Source of the DNA: a virus
Lineage: Duplodnaviria; Heunggongvirae; Uroviricota; Caudoviricetes
Direction: 5' to 3' (one strand)
Virus record (IMG/VR): IMGVR_UViG_2713896834_000012
Coordinates: 1-10,759 of that record
DNA: 10,759 nucleotides
Positions 1-10,759 of the stretch are shown here, one piece after another (the first letter of the stretch is position 1; the number at the start of each line of letters is the position of its first letter). Position numbers and translations under genes: made by a program. Under the pieces are notes generated by a model. That model saw only the letters and a list, made by a program, of their open reading frames with translations, had not been told where the DNA came from and did not search any database.

Positions 1-192
1 TCAGGAGCATTTCTGATTAACGCCACCGTTAAGAATCCACCCTTCAACAGCTTCACGAAGGTATGATTTGGGGTGGGTTCTGACTGGCTTCGGAAATCCG
101 TGTCGTTTGGTATAGTTCCAGATTGTCTGACGTGATGAAACACCGAGCTTGTTCATCACTTCTTTCTCAGGAATCAGGCTGGTATCGGTCAT
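1..192 (-). CDS. AlpA-family (prophage regulatory / excisionase-like) helix-turn-helix protein, 63 aa
   Basis: Complete minus-strand ORF (ATG at 192-190, stop at 3-1). GGAG Shine-Dalgarno (complement of 200-203) lies 7 nt upstream of the ATG. The pattern KLGVSSRQTIWNYTKRHGFPKPV...AVEGWI matches the AlpA/TorI/Xis winged-HTH signature as I recall it. Family assignment is from memory, not a search. Confidence 0.6.
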   Translation of the reverse strand: MTDTSLIPEKEVMNKLGVSSRQTIWNYTKRHGFPKPVRTHPKSYLREAVEGWILNGGVNQKCS

Positions 193-206
193 CTTAATTC
201 TCCAGG

Positions 207-232
207 CAAAAAGAAACCGCCATCAGGCGGCT
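207..232 (-). terminator. Intrinsic terminator-like hairpin between the zinc-ribbon ORF and the AlpA-like gene
   Basis: On the minus strand: GC stem (plus-strand 217-221 ccgcc pairs with 226-230 ggcgg, 4-nt loop) followed directly by TTTCTTTTT (complement of 207-215). It ends about 15 nt upstream of the AlpA-like start codon. Confidence 0.45.
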
Positions 233-296
233 TGGTGTTCTTTCAGTTCTTCAATTCGAATATTGGTTACATTGTTTTCATATATGAATAAATAAA

Positions 297-476
297 TTAG
301 CTTTTTTCGTTGCCTTCGCGTTCTTTATTAATTTTAACAAACTCGTTTTTACCACGCTCTCCAAATGCGTCTTTAGAGTCGTTGTATCCGCAATCGCAGC
401 ACACATAATCACCAGACCATCCACGCATTGTTTTTTCTTTTGCAATATTTCCAGAACCGCATTCTGGGCAAGACAT
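297..476 (-). CDS. Small zinc-ribbon protein, 59 aa ([59 protein letters not shown])
   Basis: Hand translation of the minus strand: ATG at 476-474, TAA at 299-297. Two zinc knuckles, CPECG and C(C)DCG, spaced about 19 residues apart. AGGT 8 nt upstream as a weak RBS. Below the length cut-off of the supplied ORF track. Function unknown. Confidence 0.45.
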
Positions 477-488
477 ATCACGAACCTG

Positions 489-1070
489 ATGAAAAAACTG
501 GAGACGATAGGATTCGACACCAAAAAAGACCTGCTTATCTCGGTTGGCGATTTGGTCGATCGCGGTACAGAGAACGTCGAATGCCTGGAATTAATCACAT
601 TCCCCTGGTTCAGAGCTGTACGTGGAAACCATGAGCAAATGATGATTGATGGCTTATCAGAGCGCGGAAACGTCAATCACTGGATGCTTAATGGCGGTGG
701 CTGGTTCTTTAATATCGATTACGACAAAGAAATTCTGGCTAAAGATCTTGCCCATAAAGCAGATGAACTTCCGTTAATCATCGAACTGGTGAGCAAAGAT
801 AAAAAATATGTCATCTGCCACGCCGATTATCCTTGTGACGAATACGAATTTGGAAAGCCAGTTGATCATCAGCAGGTAATCTGGAACCGCGAACGAATCA
901 GCAACTCACAAGACGGGATCGTGAAAGAAATTAAAGGCGCGGACACGTTCATCTTTGGTCATACGCCAGCAGTGAAACCACTCAAGTTTGCCAACCAGAT
1001 GTATATAGATACCGGCGCAGTGTTCTGCGGAAACCTCACATTGATTCAGGTACAGGGAGAAGGCGCATGA
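489..1070 (+). CDS. Lambda-type Ser/Thr protein phosphatase (orf221/NinI, PrpA/PrpB family), N-terminally truncated; probably non-functional
   Basis: 193-aa ORF with metallophosphatase motifs GDLVDRG and GNHE and C-terminus ...[13 protein letters not shown], near-identical to the lambda phosphatase as I recall it. The first about 35-40 residues, including the GDxHG metal-binding motif, are missing. The frame is open upstream to 288 but encodes unrelated sequence. Confidence 0.8.
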
Positions 1071-1690
1071 GACTCGAAAGCGTAGCTAAATTTCATTCGC
1101 CAAAAAGCCCGATGATGAGCGACTCACCACGGGCCACGGCTTCTGACTCTCTTTCCGGTACTGATGTGATGGCTGCTATGGGGATGGCGCAATCACAAGC
1201 CGGATTCGGAATGGCTGCATTCTGCGGTAAGCATGAACTCAGCCAGAACGACAAACAAAAGGCTATCAACTATCTGATGCAATTTGCACACAAGGTATCG
1301 GGGAAATACCGTGGTGTGGCAAAGCTCGAAGGAAATACTAAGGCAAAGGTACTGCAAGTGCTCGCAACATTCGCTTATGCGGATTATTGCCGTAGTGCCG
1401 CGACGCCGGGCGCAAGATGCAGAGATTGCCACGGTACAGGCCGTGCGGTTGATATAGCAAAAACAGAGCAGTGGGGGAGAGTTGTTGAGAAAGAGTGCGG
1501 AAGATGCAAAGGTGTCGGCTATTCAAGAATGCCAGCAAGCGCAGCATATCGCGCTGTAACGATTCTAATCCCAAACCTTACTCAACCCACATGGTCACGC
1601 ACTGTTAAGCCGCTGTATGACGCTCTGGTGGTGCAATGCCACAAAGAAGAGTCAATCGCAGACAACATTTTGAATTCGGTCACACGTTAG
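1067..1690 (+). CDS. Q: Late-gene antiterminator Q (lambda Q type), 207 aa
   Basis: Protein [27 protein letters not shown]... matches lambda Q essentially along its full length (from memory). ATGA start/stop overlap with the phosphatase gene. GGGAGAAGG RBS at 1055-1063. Zinc-binding CRDCHGTG...CGRCKG. Confidence 0.93.
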
Positions 1691-2907: not shown

Positions 2908-3341
2908 GCAGAGTCACCGCGATTATCTCCGCTCTGGTTATCTGCATCATCGTCTGTCTGTCATGGGCTGTTAATCATTACCGTGATAACGCCATCGCCT
3001 ATAAAGAACAGCGCGATAAAGCCACGTACATCATCGCTGACATGCAGAAGCGTCAACGTGATGTAGCAGAACTCGACGCCAGATACACAAAGGAGCTTGC
3101 TGATGCTAACGCGACTATCGAAAGTCTCCGTGCTGATGTTTCTGCTGGGCGTAAGCGCCTGCAAGTCGCCGCCACCTGTGCAAGGTCAACGACCAGAGCC
3201 AGCGGCATGGGCGATGGAGAAAGCCCAGGACTTACAGCAGATGCTGAACTCAATTATTACCGTCTCCGAAGTGGAATCGACAAGATAACCGCGCAGGTTA
3301 ACTACCTGCAGGAATACATCAGGATGCAATGCCTGAAATGA
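2904..3341 (+). CDS. Rz: Inner-membrane spanin Rz (i-spanin)
   Basis: ATGA overlap with the R stop. N-terminus [31 protein letters not shown]... is lambda Rz-like with an N-terminal transmembrane helix and predicted coiled coil. The central region diverges from lambda. Confidence 0.85.
3103..3288 (+). CDS. Rz1: Outer-membrane lipoprotein spanin Rz1 (o-spanin), embedded in the +1 frame of Rz
   Basis: AGGAG (3091-3095) 7 nt upstream of ATG 3103. Signal peptide [20 protein letters not shown] with lipobox VSAC, followed by a proline-rich stretch ([13 protein letters not shown]). The track's 3097 start is a TTG in the same frame. Confidence 0.7.
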
Positions 3342-3377
3342 TCGGGCGATGAAAACCAAAAAAAACAGGAGCAATAC

Positions 3378-3936: not shown

Positions 3937-4305
3937 ATGAACGACAAGCAAATTGAAAAAGAAATCGCAGCCAAGGGTAAGGCGGCTCGCGTTACTCCTG
4001 AACACATTGCCAGCATAATCGCCAGCGAACATTACTTTACGGCCGCTGATGGTGCTCGCTTTGCTCATGTGCAGAGAAGCGAAACATACAGCGTAAAAAT
4101 CCCAGACCAGCCTGACGAGCTGGAGCTGCTGACATTCTGCGTTCTGGTGCTGAAGAATGGCTTTACGGTCACCGGGGAAAGCGCCTGCGCCAGCCCAGAG
4201 AACTTCGATGAAGAAATCGGGCGCAAGATTGCTCGCCAGAATGCTGTAAACAAAATCTGGATGCTCGAAGGTTACTTGCTGAAGCAGAAGCTAAGCGAAC
4301 AGTAG
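3937..4305 (+). CDS. Phage protein of unknown function, 122 aa (possibly the gp49/Sf6-gp66-like family found upstream of terminase genes)
   Basis: Clean ORF located between the lysis cassette and the small terminase gene. Family assignment is tentative and from memory only. Confidence 0.55.
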   Translation: MNDKQIEKEIAAKGKAARVTPEHIASIIASEHYFTAADGARFAHVQRSETYSVKIPDQPDELELLTFCVLVLKNGFTVTGESACASPENFDEEIGRKIARQNAVNKIWMLEGYLLKQKLSEQ

Positions 4306-4653: not shown

Positions 4654-5094
4654 ATGGCGCGCCCAACAAAGTATCAAGAGGCGTATGCCGAACAGGCACG
4701 CAAACTGTGCTTGCTGGGCTACACCGATGCAGAGCTTGCTGATTTCTTCGAAGTCAGTGAGTCAACTATTAACAAGTGGAAGCTCGATTATCCTAAGTTT
4801 TCGGAGTCCATAAAAAAGGGTAAGGCCGTCGCTGATGCAGAAGTTAGTGACCGTCTTTATCAACGCGCTATGGGCTTCGTGGCTCCAGACATCGATATTC
4901 GTGTTATTGAAAACAGAATTGTCGAAACTCCGCTTGAGAAGTATTACCCGCCTGATACAACAGCTGCCATCTTCTGGCTTAAGAACCGACAGAAGGATAA
5001 ATGGCGCGACAAGGTTGATCACGAGCTAACAGGCAAAGACGGCGGCGCAATTCAGATTGAAACATCACCGATGAGCACTCTATTCGGAAAATGA
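4654..5094 (+). CDS. Terminase small subunit (HTH DNA-binding), 146 aa
   Basis: N-terminal HTH-like segment (...GYTDAELADFFEVSESTINKWK...). Immediately precedes the large terminase subunit and is translationally coupled to it by an ATGA overlap at 5091-5094. Confidence 0.75.
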   Translation: MARPTKYQEAYAEQARKLCLLGYTDAELADFFEVSESTINKWKLDYPKFSESIKKGKAVADAEVSDRLYQRAMGFVAPDIDIRVIENRIVETPLEKYYPPDTTAAIFWLKNRQKDKWRDKVDHELTGKDGGAIQIETSPMSTLFGK

Positions 5095-6314
5095 CCTCGA
5101 TTAATCCTATCTTTGAACCGTTCATTGAGGCGCATCGCTACAAAGTCGCCAAAGGCGGTCGAGGTAGCGGTAAGTCATGGGCAATTGCTAGGCTGCTTGT
5201 TGAAGCGGCGCGTCGTCAGCCAGTGCGTATTCTCTGCGCTCGTGAACTGCAAAACAGTATCAGCGATTCGGTAATCCGGTTGCTTGAAGATACCATCGAG
5301 CGGGAAGGGTATTCGGCTGAGTTTGAAATTCAGCGTTCAATGATTCGTCATCTCGGTACGAATGCTGAATTCATGTTCTACGGCATCAAAAACAACCCGA
5401 CGAAGATTAAATCGCTCGAAGGCATTGATATCTGCTGGGTGGAAGAAGCGGAAGCGGTAACGAAGGAATCATGGGATATCCTGATACCAACCATCCGCAA
5501 GCCGTTTTCCGAAATATGGGTGAGCTTTAACCCGAAAAACATCCTCGACGATACCTATCAGCGATTCGTCGTAAATCCTCCCGATGATATTTGTCTGCTG
5601 ACAGTGAACTACACCGACAACCCGCACTTTCCTGAAGTTCTCCGTCTGGAGATGGAAGAGTGTAAACGCAGAAATCCGACACTGTATCGTCACATCTGGC
5701 TTGGTGAGCCAGTAAGCGCAAGTGATATGGCAATCATCAAACGTGAATGGCATGAAGCCGCAACCGATGCGCACAAGAAACTCGGATGGAAAGCGAAAGG
5801 CGCTGTTGTCTCTGCGCATGACCCATCAGATACAGGGCCAGATGCTAAAGGTTATGCATCGCGTCACGGTTCGGTAGTTAAGCGCATTGCTGAAGGTCTG
5901 CTGATGGACATCAACGAGGGTGCTGACTGGGCTACTTCGCTGGCGATTGAAGACGGTGCTGACCACTACCTGTGGGATGGCGATGGCGTTGGTGCCGGGC
6001 TACGCAGACAGACAACGGAAGCGTTCTCCGGCAAGAAAATCACCGCCACGATGTTCAAGGGCAGCGAATCGCCATTCGATGAAGATGCTCCGTATCAGGC
6101 CGGAGCATGGGCTGATGAAGTAGTACAGGGCGACAACGTTCGCACTATTGGCGATGTGTTCCGCAATAAGCGAGCGCAATTCTATTACGCGCTGGCTGAC
6201 AGGCTGTATCTAACCTGCAGAAGCTTGGTAAGGTTGCTGATAACGAGACTATTTCAAAACTTCAGTCCTATCGTGATGAGCTTGTTCGCAATGCTGGTCC
6301 AGATGGTCCGGTAA
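5091..6314 (+). CDS. Terminase large subunit (PBSX/Sf6-like family), C-terminally truncated or frame-disrupted; probable pseudogene
   Basis: Walker A motif KGGRGSGKS near the N-terminus, ATPase and RNase-H-like nuclease regions recognisable to about residue 372 (...RAQFYYALADRLYLT). The last about 35 residues (CRSLVRLLITRLFQNFSPIVMSLFAMLVQMVR) look like out-of-frame junk. No portal gene follows. Confidence 0.85.
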   Translation: MTSINPIFEPFIEAHRYKVAKGGRGSGKSWAIARLLVEAARRQPVRILCARELQNSISDSVIRLLEDTIEREGYSAEFEIQRSMIRHLGTNAEFMFYGIKNNPTKIKSLEGIDICWVEEAEAVTKESWDILIPTIRKPFSEIWVSFNPKNILDDTYQRFVVNPPDDICLLTVNYTDNPHFPEVLRLEMEECKRRNPTLYRHIWLGEPVSASDMAIIKREWHEAATDAHKKLGWKAKGAVVSAHDPSDTGPDAKGYASRHGSVVKRIAEGLLMDINEGADWATSLAIEDGADHYLWDGDGVGAGLRRQTTEAFSGKKITATMFKGSESPFDEDAPYQAGAWADEVVQGDNVRTIGDVFRNKRAQFYYALADRLYLTCRSLVRLLITRLFQNFSPIVMSLFAMLVQMVR

Positions 6315-6997
6315 ATCTGGATTTGAAGCAATTAAGCGATCTGCGCAGCCAGTTCAGAATGGACGTGAAGGGTGAGCGACCAGTGTTACCAAACCGTTCC
6401 GATGCTGCCATTCAGCGCGTTTACAAGGCAATGACTGACGATATCAATGGTGCCATTGGTCAGAATCTTGGCAACGATACTCTCCGTAAATATCAGCAGG
6501 CCAATGCCGTCTACGCTGACGAAGCGGCGAAGCTAAAGAATACCAGGCTGAAGAATGTTCTCATGAAAGGCGACCTGACGCCGGAAGTTGTCAACAACAT
6601 GCTATTCAGCAAGAACAAATCGGAAATTAAGACGCTGTATAACTCAGTTGGTCGTGTTGGCAGGGCGCAAATGCGCAATGGCATCATTGGAAAGGCGATG
6701 GAGAAATCTGGCGGATCCCCTGACCAGTTCCTTCGGCAGCTTAACATCCTGCAAAACCAGACTGGCATCACATTTAAGGGGCAGGACGCTGCTTATCTGA
6801 AAGGATTGAAAAAATACCTTCAGTCCACTCAGCAGGCAGCAAAAGCGGCAGTAACAACACCAACAGGGCAGCAAACCATCCCGTTCATTATCGGGTATGG
6901 GACGGCAACGAACCCGGCGACAACTGGCGCAGCAGTAAGCTACGGACTTCTTACTCGCGCCTATGAGAGCGAACCATTCAGAAATGCAATGCTCTGA
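6200..6997 (+). pseudogene. 3' fragment of a virion structural gene (possibly the last ejection/injection protein upstream of the tailspike), lacking its 5' end
   Basis: Frame +2 is open from 6200 (preceded by TGA at 6197-6199) to the stop at 6995-6997, with no ATG until far downstream. The track's 6323 start is a TTG. The translation is Q/N/K/A/G-rich (QAVSNLQKLGKVADNETISKLQSYRDELV...). Gene identity is inferred from synteny only. Confidence 0.4.
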
Positions 6998-7272: not shown

Positions 7273-9453
7273 ATGACAGACATTACAGCCAATGTTGTAG
7301 TAAGCATGCCTTCGCAACTCTTCACTATGGCGCGTTCTTTTAAAGCCGTAGCCAATGGCAAAATTTATATCGGTAAAATTGACACTGACCCAGTAAATCC
7401 TGAAAACCAGATTCAGGTTTATGTGGAGAACGAAGACGGCTCTCACGTTCCTGTTTCGCAACCAATCATCATTAACGCTGCTGGTTACCCTGTATATAAC
7501 GGACAGATTGCCAAATTCGTTACCGTGCAAGGCCATTCTATGGCTGTTTATGACGCGTATGGTGCACAGCAATTCTATTTTCCGAATGTACTTAAGTACG
7601 ACCCTGCCGCACTAAAATATGACTTGGAAGCTCCGTATGGCATGTCGATTATTGGGGAGTTCGAATCGGTAGCGGACTTGCAATCCTTCTCCCAGTTGTC
7701 CCTGATTGATAACGGGGAGAGAGTGTCGGTAAAAAGCTTTCATGCTGGAAGAGGTGTTGGTGGTGGTTATTTCAGATGGTTGGCCACAAGCACGCTGGCT
7801 GATGACGGATTTTCTGTCATCAAACCAACCGCTGTTACTGGTTCCGGGCGATGGGTAAACGTGAAGAGAGGTGCGCTTACTCCACCAGAGTGTGGGGCTG
7901 TTCCTGATGATTCTACTTTCGACAGTGCTACCGGACTTTCAAACTGGGCTACTCAAAACCGCTGCATTGGTAGTCCTGGTGTGTTTAGATCATCAACTGG
8001 GATAGTATTTACAGGCAGTAATCCATGGGTTACTGCCGATCGTATGACGATTGAATATACTGCACCAGAGATTAACGGCGTTATGGTAACCACTAACGAC
8101 CAGACTATATTTCAAGTTGAGGGACTGGAAGTTAAAAACGTTAGTGCGACACCATCTACGGCTGCCGCAACTGCAAATGGATTTAGAATGATTGGGCTTA
8201 AGCAGGCATTTGTTAGGCGCTGCAGAAGCATCGGATGGAAAAATGCAGGGATATTCTTCCAGAGCTGCAGGCAGTGGGAAGCTATTGATAATTTATGCTG
8301 GCTTAATGATTGGGACCTAACCAATACATTTGCCTCCGGTGGGGATATCGTTTCCTACACTGGAACGCCAGGCGCTTCAAAGGGAGGGAAAATAATTGGT
8401 AATTTACTGCTTTCCGATGCAAGCCAAGGAATTAACGTAAACGCACTGTCTGCTGATAGGGAAATCATCATTGCAAATAACACGATCCTTACCTATAACA
8501 CTGATTTCACAACGAAAGATTTCTCTCTCATTAATAAAAGACATGGTATTGAGTTTGGGTACAAAAGTAATCAGACTTACGGAGGCTCGATACTTATTGC
8601 AAACAATATTATTCGTGATACGAACTGGACTGGTATTTACCGTTCTGGTGGAGCGGATGGTTCTGTTTCTTATCCACCATCAATGATTCATGGCAATTTG
8701 ATCCATAACGTTGGTATGAAAATTGATGCATCCAATATCTCTGGTGGTATTCTAATTGGTGATATAGTTGATGGTGACATACTATCTAACAATATTGTTT
8801 CTGGTTTTGGTCAATTATCATCTGGTGCCTATCGGATACAGGATTCGGTTGGAAGCGGTAAGCTCACAATGAACAACAATGTAGACTTTGATAGCAAGGG
8901 GTCAGGTATATACATAACTGGTGAGGCTAATGGTGTGGTTGTTAACGGTCACAGAACTGTCAGAGCTTCAGGTTATAGCGTATTCCTTGCCCCCGTATCA
9001 GGAGCTACAGTTTTTGGCGATCACGTACTAAATAACATCGTGGTTGAAAGGACTACGGATGGTTACGGTGTTGTATTTGCTTCAGGCGCTGCGACAACAA
9101 GCTCTCTGAATAATCTAAATGCAAAAGGAACCTTCACAAACGCCACTACTAACTCAGCTGTATATGTGGCAGGAACACCTTCAAATGCAATAATTATCGG
9201 AGGCGTCATTAAAGGGTTTGCGTATGGAGTCTGGTGTCAGTCTTATGTCGACACTACAATCCAACTTCCATGGGGTGGCATAACCTTCATTGGTACAATA
9301 AATGCTTTCAGGCTGGCAAGGACAACAGGAACCGCAAATGCGTTTGTAAATCCTAATTTTTTCTATGGCGTAACTAATAGATTCTCAAATGGTGGCACAG
9401 GTACCAGTAATGGAGCAGAAAGATTATTGGTTAATGGGGCTGTTGTGGCATAA
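7273..9453 (+). CDS. Tailspike protein: P22-type N-terminal head-binding domain plus right-handed beta-helix receptor-binding (probable glycanase) domain, 726 aa
   Basis: N-terminus [13 protein letters not shown]...[27 protein letters not shown]...[13 protein letters not shown]...NVLKYDP matches the P22/Sf6/HK620 tailspike head-binding domain (from memory). The remainder has beta-helix-like repeats ([29 protein letters not shown]). GGAG RBS 8 nt upstream. Confidence 0.9.
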
Positions 9454-9475: not shown

Positions 9476-10759
9476 CATAAGCGCTAACTTAAGGGTTGAA
9501 CCATCTGAAGAATGCGACGCCTCGGTGCCTCGTTAAGACGATGCCTCGCGTTCTTCAATTGCGTTTTGTAGGCTGTCAGGGATACTGTCCCACGAATGGC
9601 CACCTGTAAGCTCCAGATGACCATTTTTGTTATTCTCCACAACGAGTTAGTTCTTCTTTTCGGATCCGGCACTTCTGGGGGGGAAATCCAGCGATGGCTG
9701 GATTATGTCGTCAATTAAAAATGCGGCGAGTAGATTAGCAAATATCCACGCTTTCGCGAGTTCAGGTTCCTTTGCACGCAAAGCATCCAGGTGCAGCAAA
9801 CTTTTGAGCCGCTTAAAAGCCAGTTCAATTTGCCATCGCAGACGGTAACAATCAGCCACTTGCTCTGCTGAATATTCATCTTCCGGTAATGATGTTAGCA
9901 ATAGCACATGGCCCGCTGCTTCCAGCGTTTCCGCCTGAACTACTCGTCCTTTTCGACGATTCTCGCTGAGCAGTCGGGTTTTACTGATTAATGCTTTTTC
10001 GGGAGGAAGTGATACGGCAATGAGACGTGCCGGAAAGGGAGCTCCGGCTTTTTTATTACCTGAATTGCCTATCATTACAGTGGTTTCACCGTTCTTACCG
10101 CAATCCAGCCCGCGCAGAAAACCCATCATGTCAAAGCGCATTCCTTCTGCAGTTAACCAGCGCAATCCTCGCCAGTGAACCCGGACGATATAATCAGCTT
10201 CTCCAAAAGCAAGTGAGCGGATACATTCGGGACGCGAACCGAATCCCCGGTCAGCAATGCGTATCTCGTCTGCCGTTTGCGCAAATCGGTCCAGCCGTTC
10301 AGCGTCTCTGCTGTCGGTTAGCTCAAAATCAGTGAACTGACAGGTATGAGGATCATATCCCATATGTAGTCGCCATTCAGCGCTGCCGCCCCCGGGCGCA
10401 CTGATTGCTGTTCCATCGACAAGACGCAATCTCTTTCCGCTTGTACAACCCGTAACTGCGGCGCGTACAGCAAGTGTTTGTGCGGCAAGTATGCCAAACC
10501 AGTCGGCGGCATTCCGCAGCCGCTTCAGGAGAGCCACGTCAGATAATGTTGCAACGTCATGGAGCTGAGCCCATGCAGTGACTTCACGTAATGACATCCC
10601 CCCGGGGCCGTAAGCCAGCCCCAGACGTAGCAGAGTTGCAGCATCACGAATTTCGCGGCGGCGGGTTAGAGCCCCGGCATTACGTGCCGAAGTATCCAGT
10701 TCTTCGGGCTTACCAATATGGGCCAGAATTGCTGACCAGTTATCGTGAGAGTAATTCAT
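9476..10759 (-). mobile_element. IS186 (IS4 family), partial; the far end lies beyond the window
   Basis: Terminal inverted repeat CATAAGCGCTAACTTAAGGGTTG begins at about 9476. It is flanked by GGGGGGTGTCACCCC (9462-9476), the G-run/C-run target type IS186 is known to prefer. Contains the complete insL-type transposase. Boundary is accurate to about 1 nt. Confidence 0.9.
9647..10759 (-). CDS. insL: IS186 transposase (IS4 family, DDE), 370 aa
   Basis: Protein MNYSHDNWSAILAHIGKPEELDTSARNAG... with the IS4-family motif YRLRWQIELAFKRLK. The start codon is the last 3 nt of the window (10759-10757), stop at 9649-9647. Confidence 0.95.
   Translation of the reverse strand: MNYSHDNWSAILAHIGKPEELDTSARNAGALTRRREIRDAATLLRLGLAYGPGGMSLREVTAWAQLHDVATLSDVALLKRLRNAADWFGILAAQTLAVRAAVTGCTSGKRLRLVDGTAISAPGGGSAEWRLHMGYDPHTCQFTDFELTDSRDAERLDRFAQTADEIRIADRGFGSRPECIRSLAFGEADYIVRVHWRGLRWLTAEGMRFDMMGFLRGLDCGKNGETTVMIGNSGNKKAGAPFPARLIAVSLPPEKALISKTRLLSENRRKGRVVQAETLEAAGHVLLLTSLPEDEYSAEQVADCYRLRWQIELAFKRLKSLLHLDALRAKEPELAKAWIFANLLAAFLIDDIIQPSLDFPPRSAGSEKKN

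Follow-up and report, generated by a model that had tools for sequence, protein, structure and literature searches.

A 59-codon zinc-ribbon gene in a defective P22-like prophage is an orthologue of P22 eaG

We analyzed a 10,759-nucleotide stretch of a Caudoviricetes virus record (IMG/VR record IMGVR_UViG_2713896834_000012, hereafter the window) that carries, on the minus strand at positions 297 to 476, an open reading frame (ORF) of 59 codons with two cysteine knuckles. The match of its product to the P22 protein EaG is unambiguous, and by sequence the ORF is the orthologue of P22 eaG. Very probably, eaG is an accessory gene of P22-like and lambdoid phages that persists here as a stranded passenger in a defective prophage. 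The first-pass annotation of the window had picked out the ORF as an unlisted gene. The ORF is indeed present and both knuckles are found in it, but it is not a new gene, as it is already catalogued as eaG in the GenBank records of P22 (L06296 and NC_002371) and in RefSeq.

Identity, coding status and breadth of the family

The eaG coding sequence runs from an ATG at 476-474 to a TAA at 299-297 and specifies a predicted zinc ribbon (residues 1-38) followed by a disordered, charged tail (residues 39-59). The RefSeq 'Eag protein' WP_053908461.1 has exactly these coordinates, and E. coli KBN10P04869 is one of many genomes with this annotation that match the window at 100%. When phage genomes are searched with tblastn, 40 records match the product of the ORF. 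The full-length matches, with E values of about 1e-30, include the HK629 gene (98% identity), hkaD of HK620 (97%), eaG of P22, ST64T and L (93%, for P22 over 59 of 59 amino acids) and a gene of Sf101. The best E value against phage genes annotated as eaG, Eag or hkaD is 1e-31. The PHROG family phrog_2945, whose function is listed as unknown, matches residues 1-58 (E=8e-31).

The pattern of variation in the gene is that of a coding sequence. We compared eaG alleles at the DNA level in 83 loci (80 IMG/VR proviruses, P22, HK620 and the window) and found 22 of them. The variable sites are distributed as 4, 5 and 12 over the first, second and third codon positions, a clear third-position bias, with 10 synonymous changes on about 33 sites and 12 non-synonymous changes on about 144 sites (ratio about 0.28). 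The non-synonymous changes are mostly located in the C-terminal tail. The K5E and C3C differences of the window are private to the remnant lineage. More distant relatives, at 31-54% identity, retain all four cysteines with two exceptions. Because the cysteines are kept at this distance and the polymorphism is biased towards third positions, eaG can be regarded as a genuine protein-coding gene.

The family is narrow, and its members come from phages and prophages of gammaproteobacteria and of metagenomes. When 1.84 billion representatives at 50% identity are scanned exhaustively with HMMER, 16 match at E<=0.001, and a scan of one genome per species yields a single distant match. A profile search collects 71 clusters at 90% identity, which come from E. 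coli, Salmonella, Cronobacter, Enterobacter, Yersinia, Vibrio and Colwellia; NCBI gives several of them the name 'Eag protein'. Across 36 aligned sequences with identity down to 31%, residues M1, P4, C6, C26 and C29 are invariant and C3, K13, G22, D23 and F38 are conserved in at least 90% of the sequences; C27, the first cysteine of the CCDCG knuckle, is variable. The homologues share the motif CPxCGS..K[ED]..G[WQ][ST]GDY[VI]CxxCG[YF]..F. The distant homologues from Cronobacter, Yersinia, Vibrio and metagenomic phages retain the cysteines and the frame in differing DNA contexts. Both of the features on which the first-pass annotation had staked its zinc-ribbon ORF, homologues with conserved cysteines and a reading frame conserved in related prophages, were found. 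A domain search with a 3904-aa protein that contains repeated EaG-like ribbons (P0041) was uninformative.

A zinc ribbon without a closer family

The knuckles CPECG (C3 and C6) and CCDCG are predicted to provide the metal ligands C3/C6 and C26/C29 of a single Cys4 zinc ribbon. AlphaFold, run with the 36-sequence alignment, models residues 1-40 as a small beta-hairpin zinc-ribbon core (predicted local distance difference test score, pLDDT, of 82-87) and residues 42-59 as a disordered tail (pLDDT <50). The protein has a mass of 6.6 kDa and an isoelectric point (pI) of 5.3; the ribbon core of the window allele, at pI 4.5, is acidic, and the tail of this allele is slightly basic. Most relatives have a distinctly basic tail (pI 8-10.7), with a frequent K[WL]KLK motif, and this lysine-rich character hints at a nucleic-acid or nucleoprotein target. 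The C-terminal K[WL]KLK recurs in variable, disordered, lysine-rich tails (P0036, P0037, P0038, P0049, P0054, P0058 and others), and the E. coli and Salmonella proteins have VKINKER at this position. The motif may be a short linear binding motif.

Sequence and model together establish the fold class as a zinc ribbon, and no specific family beyond EaG itself is supported. All family models that match do so below their cut-offs: Lar_restr_allev (PF14354) at 21.8 bits against 28.6, over model positions 5-43 of 58 only; HVO_2753_ZBP (PF07754) at 21.4 bits against 33.2, over model positions 18-46, its second half only; the TFIIB-type Zn_Ribbon_TF (PF08271) at 16.4 bits against 29; and the NCBIfam models PRK14890 (26.9 bits against 61), NF041909 (18.8 against 80) and TIGR03655 (14.4 against 39.6). 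Among 12 EaG relatives, sub-threshold matches are found to the TFIIB ribbon in 10, to Lar in 9 and to HVO_2753 in 7. Because the TFIIB-type ribbon and HVO_2753 models match as well as Lar does, these matches represent a generic zinc-ribbon signal. Membership of the HVO_2753 or archaeal small zinc-finger proteins was considered and rejected, given the PF07754 and NF041909 scores below cut-off and the half-model match. A sequence-profile search of the PDB gave a best E value of at least 7e-4, and Foldseek with the EaG model gave E values of at least 0.9 against the PDB and at least 0.012 against viral models. The PADLOC defence-system models do not match EaG, and one distant relative gives noise only.

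The most concrete alternative for the function of the protein makes EaG a diverged Lar (RalR) protein, of the family that alleviates restriction; it would shield phage DNA from type I restriction on entry or during recombination. Like EaG, Lar/RalR of the Rac prophage is a Cys4 zinc-ribbon protein of about 60 amino acids encoded near xis in the distal end region of a leftward early operon; xisR is two genes away from lar/ralR. The two proteins show a weak sequence resemblance over the ribbon, the best of the sub-threshold Lar matches in the 12 family members has an E value of 6e-5, and several EaG homologues carry a precomputed PF14354 label. However, EaG leaves the C-terminal part of the Lar model unmatched and scores below the gathering cut-off, whereas the genuine Rac Lar reaches 53.5 bits over model positions 2-58. 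The hhalign probability for the EaG profile against Rac Lar is 8%, and a true Lar-family gene stands side by side with an Eag homologue in a Yersinia prophage. By these comparisons EaG does not come out as a Lar protein, and we consider a Lar-like role quite unlikely. In the K-12 annotation RalR is a type I toxin DNase.

In the Yersinia prophage (L103), one leftward early operon contains the bona fide Lar-family gene (PF14354) and the Eag homologue (3146-3349 and 4001-4168) as well as an MT-A70 methyltransferase. The co-occurrence suggests that the two small zinc-ribbon proteins are not redundant.

Another proposal is that EaG is a ribbon of the TFIIB or TFS kind that binds RNA polymerase, or a Com/Ogr-type activator of phage expression, possibly acting with the AlpA-like protein encoded beside it. 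Of the 12 family members, the 10 with weak Zn_Ribbon_TF matches reach a best E value of 1.5e-6, and the ribbons of TFS4, TFIIS and TFIIB are among the closest structural neighbours of EaG, at non-significant scores. Mu Com and P2 Ogr, which the first-pass annotation named as examples, resemble EaG in being small phage proteins with four cysteines, but their contexts (the mom gene and P2-type late operons) differ from that of eaG. Neither Com nor Ogr/Delta has a Pfam match to EaG at E<=1. The hhalign probabilities are 1.8% over 6 columns for Mu Com and 2.0% over 8 columns for P2 Ogr, and each of these alignments includes one CxxC knuckle only. No mom-like gene is annotated in the stretch of the matching genome that covers window positions 1 to about 7100. 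The prophage also carries a gene for a lambda-type Q antiterminator, the usual late-gene regulator of lambdoid phages. We therefore set the comparison with Com and Ogr aside, and regard a role of EaG in transcription as improbable.

Exchange of neighbours around eaG

In intact phages eaG is found in the distal part of the early-left region. The gene order in P22 is abc-...-eaE-eaF-eaD-eaI-eaA-eaG-hairpin-eaC-xis-int-attP, and that in HK620 is ...hkaE-hkaD(eaG)-hairpin-PI promoter-xis(TorI-like)-int. P22 EaG (NP_059587) and HK620 HkaD (NP_112037) share with the window protein the 59-aa length and the cysteines, and their genes share its 3' flank and hairpin; in all three eaG is immediately upstream of an excision/integration module. 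The window differs from both phages in the K5E allele and in the deletion of the upstream operon and of the native ribosome-binding site. The modules that follow also differ, with an AlpA-like xis in the window, eaC and xis in P22 and a TorI-like xis in HK620. The Cronobacter and Yersinia homologues (49-63% identity) are encoded between RecT/Erf-SSB recombination genes and an integrase. The most distant protein named 'Eag protein' (38% identity) is encoded at about 4001-4165 of a Vibrio contig (L104), which has no obvious prophage early operon. Its gene neighbours encode a SNIPE/T5orf172 nuclease, a DUF4238 protein and a KAP NTPase, a context reminiscent of a defence island.

A census of the first same-strand ORF after eaG in the 83 loci recovers six unrelated families. 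These are a 123-aa protein (31 loci), a TorI-like Xis (26), a lambda-type Xis (9), the AlpA-like protein (5, including the window and its twin L005), P22 EaC (4) and a 71-aa protein (4). We conclude that eaG moves as an accessory gene among early regions and keeps no fixed partner.

This bears on the AlpA-like helix-turn-helix gene of the window (1..192, minus strand), with which the first-pass annotation had combined the zinc-ribbon ORF into a two-gene regulatory cassette. The AlpA-like protein matches phrog_66, 'excisionase and transcriptional regulator' (E=1.9e-8), and more weakly Pfam Phage_AlpA (17.8 bits, cut-off 21), and in the matching genome a convergent tyrosine integrase pseudogene ends inside its gene. 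Because of the excisionase match and this overlap, we assign the AlpA-like gene to the integration module; most likely it encodes the excisionase (recombination directionality factor) of the adjacent integrase, and it would be a neighbour of eaG rather than its partner. The same arrangement of AlpA-like gene and integrase is found in Cronobacter prophages, where three genes separate the AlpA-like gene from Eag. In 5426 complete E. coli genomes, eaG is detected in 325 and is adjacent to the AlpA-like gene in 95 of them, while elsewhere other genes stand upstream of the AlpA-like module in place of eaG, for example in O157:H7 strains. The cassette is not upheld by these counts, nor by the 5 of 83 loci in which the AlpA-like gene follows eaG.

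Downstream of eaG is a module-boundary element of about 57-60 bp (214..270, minus strand) that ends in a hairpin and a T-run, with the stem at 233..214. The element, GTAACCAATATTCGAATTGAAGAACTGAAAGAACACCAAGCCGCCTGATGGCGGTTT (window 270..214, minus strand), has the same sequence throughout (100% identity) in lambda, P22, HK620 and the window, and the four sequences diverge completely right after the T-run. In lambda, orf55 (lambdap35), between ea8.5 and xis, occupies the same slot as eaG and has the identical terminal 60 bp and hairpin, yet its product is unrelated to EaG, lacking the cysteine motif and any Pfam match. The shared stretch (lambda 29106-29165) is coding in lambda, where it specifies the C-terminus of the orf55 protein (...VTNIRIEELKEHQAA), and is untranslated after eaG. 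The hairpin is terminator-like on both strands, and the P22 annotation describes the element as the terminator of the antisense aI RNA. In window positions 1-1200, a search of Rfam at a permissive threshold returned no RNA family, and no RalA-like or other known antisense RNA. The terminator hairpin aside, RNA of the 3' region is predicted to fold with no greater stability than shuffled sequences (z = -0.9). The element is probably a linker and terminator at which lambdoid modules are exchanged. Such a joint would explain why eaG is found joined to many different excision modules.

A further alternative is that the functional unit is the DNA itself, namely the 60-bp boundary element and its flanks, with eaG carried along by recombination. 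The 3' flank is more conserved than the eaG coding sequence, given its complete identity across lambda, P22, HK620 and the window, and it is more widespread, with the element in 2489 of the 5426 E. coli genomes and eaG in 325. However, the homologues at 31-54% identity retain their cysteines and frame in DNA contexts of other kinds, and the polymorphism of eaG has the third-position bias described above. We give this explanation hardly any credence and retain the reading of eaG as a protein-coding accessory gene.

A stranded copy in the window and the proposed role in intact phages

The window is a decayed, defective P22-like prophage beside sbcB. In the matching genome, the gene order begins with sbcB, the integrase pseudogene, the AlpA-like gene, eaG and a 5'-truncated metallophosphoesterase, and continues with Q, holin, lysozyme and Rz genes and, further on, a truncated terminase gene fused to a truncated ejection-protein gene. 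Decay of this same prophage is seen in the window at 5091-6314, 6323-6997, 7273-9453 and 9647-10759: the truncated large terminase gene abuts a truncated lytic-transglycosylase (ejection protein) pseudogene, followed by a 726-aa tailspike that has a P22 head-binding domain and seems intact, and by an IS4-family (IS421-like) transposase on the minus strand. The tailspike gene of KBN10P04869 is additionally split by IS100, which the window does not have.

When the window is aligned with lambda ninI and HK620, a deletion joint becomes apparent at 479..481, where a 3-nt microhomology (CAC) connects a point 5 nt upstream of eaG to about codon 27 of ninI. On the eaG side only GTGAT is left upstream of the ATG, and on the other side ninI begins at about codon 27 (TNLM...). 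The truncated metallophosphoesterase is the remnant of this ninI-type serine/threonine phosphatase gene (480..1070, plus strand, followed by Q). It matches Pfam Metallophos over model positions 22-189 only (E=2e-9), and PGAP annotates it as a pseudogene, 'incomplete; missing N-terminus', starting at window position 480. The ninI homology begins at about 479-482, just outside the ORF, and eaG is not antisense to a phosphatase leader as had been proposed; the overlapping plus-strand 'leader' (428..634) is a mechanical ORF only.

In a microhomology-mediated deletion, the 5 nt upstream of the eaG ATG were joined to the interior of ninI. Judging from the gene order of the intact relatives, the immunity and replication regions would have been lost with it, along with the early-left promoter region and the remaining genes of the early-left operon. 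P22 and HK620 have GGAGGT as their native Shine-Dalgarno; the window has lost it, and phosphatase-derived sequence with AGGT 7 nt before the ATG stands in its place. The 'plausible ribosome-binding site' of the first-pass annotation exists to the extent that this AGGT is present, but it is a by-product of the deletion joint. A scan for sigma-70-like promoters on both strands of window positions 1-1200 found none. Because the upstream operon and the native Shine-Dalgarno are deleted and there is no sigma-70-like promoter in the scanned region, expression of eaG in the window is unlikely, or at best weak. The whole arrangement, including the phosphatase joint, is found in 50 of the 5426 complete E. 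coli genomes, and so identifies a lineage, or a prophage remnant beside sbcB, that has been successful.

In intact phages, eaG is a non-structural accessory gene of the leftward early operon, typically located close to its promoter-distal end, downstream of the recombination genes (erf/abc or recT) and other 'ea' genes and directly upstream of the excision/integration module. EaG would be made early in lytic growth and would act by stoichiometric binding, not by catalysis, with the zinc ribbon and the lysine-rich tail contacting nucleic acid or a host nucleic-acid-processing complex. It would be a dispensable host-interference factor, and a regulator of neither phage excision nor late genes. 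This binding mechanism, which we draw from fold class, composition and location, is a tentative proposal held with low confidence. A further suggestion is that EaG belongs to an uncharacterized class of small zinc-ribbon proteins that serve in host takeover or anti-defence, differ from Lar, Ral, Ocr and the other anti-restriction proteins known so far, and act on a host complex for nucleic-acid processing through the ribbon and the K[WL]KLK-type tail; this seems to us unlikely.

Several observations count against parts of this account. The acidic core of the window protein (pI 4.5) argues against direct binding of nucleic acid by the core. More distant EaG relatives are encoded in other early modules, such as the nin region of a lambdoid prophage, a replication module beside UDG and DNA polymerase genes, and a site upstream of the small terminase subunit gene (terS), so that the distal early-left position is typical, not universal. 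The weak AGGT 7 nt before the ATG is present and read-through transcription is possible, and the window copy may thus not be entirely silent. Finally, a literature search found no functional study of EaG, only genome-annotation tables that list it as 'unknown'; other literature on an 'Eag protein' concerns unrelated type VI secretion chaperones.

With eaG already catalogued, and present in the window as a stranded relic, the gene itself has little discovery value. What the analysis adds is a correction of the proposed zinc-ribbon/AlpA regulatory cassette and the exact deletion joint behind a widespread prophage remnant. EaG is a conserved phage protein and, at 59 amino acids, a tractable target in any effort to find what the 'ea' accessory genes of P22-like phages do.
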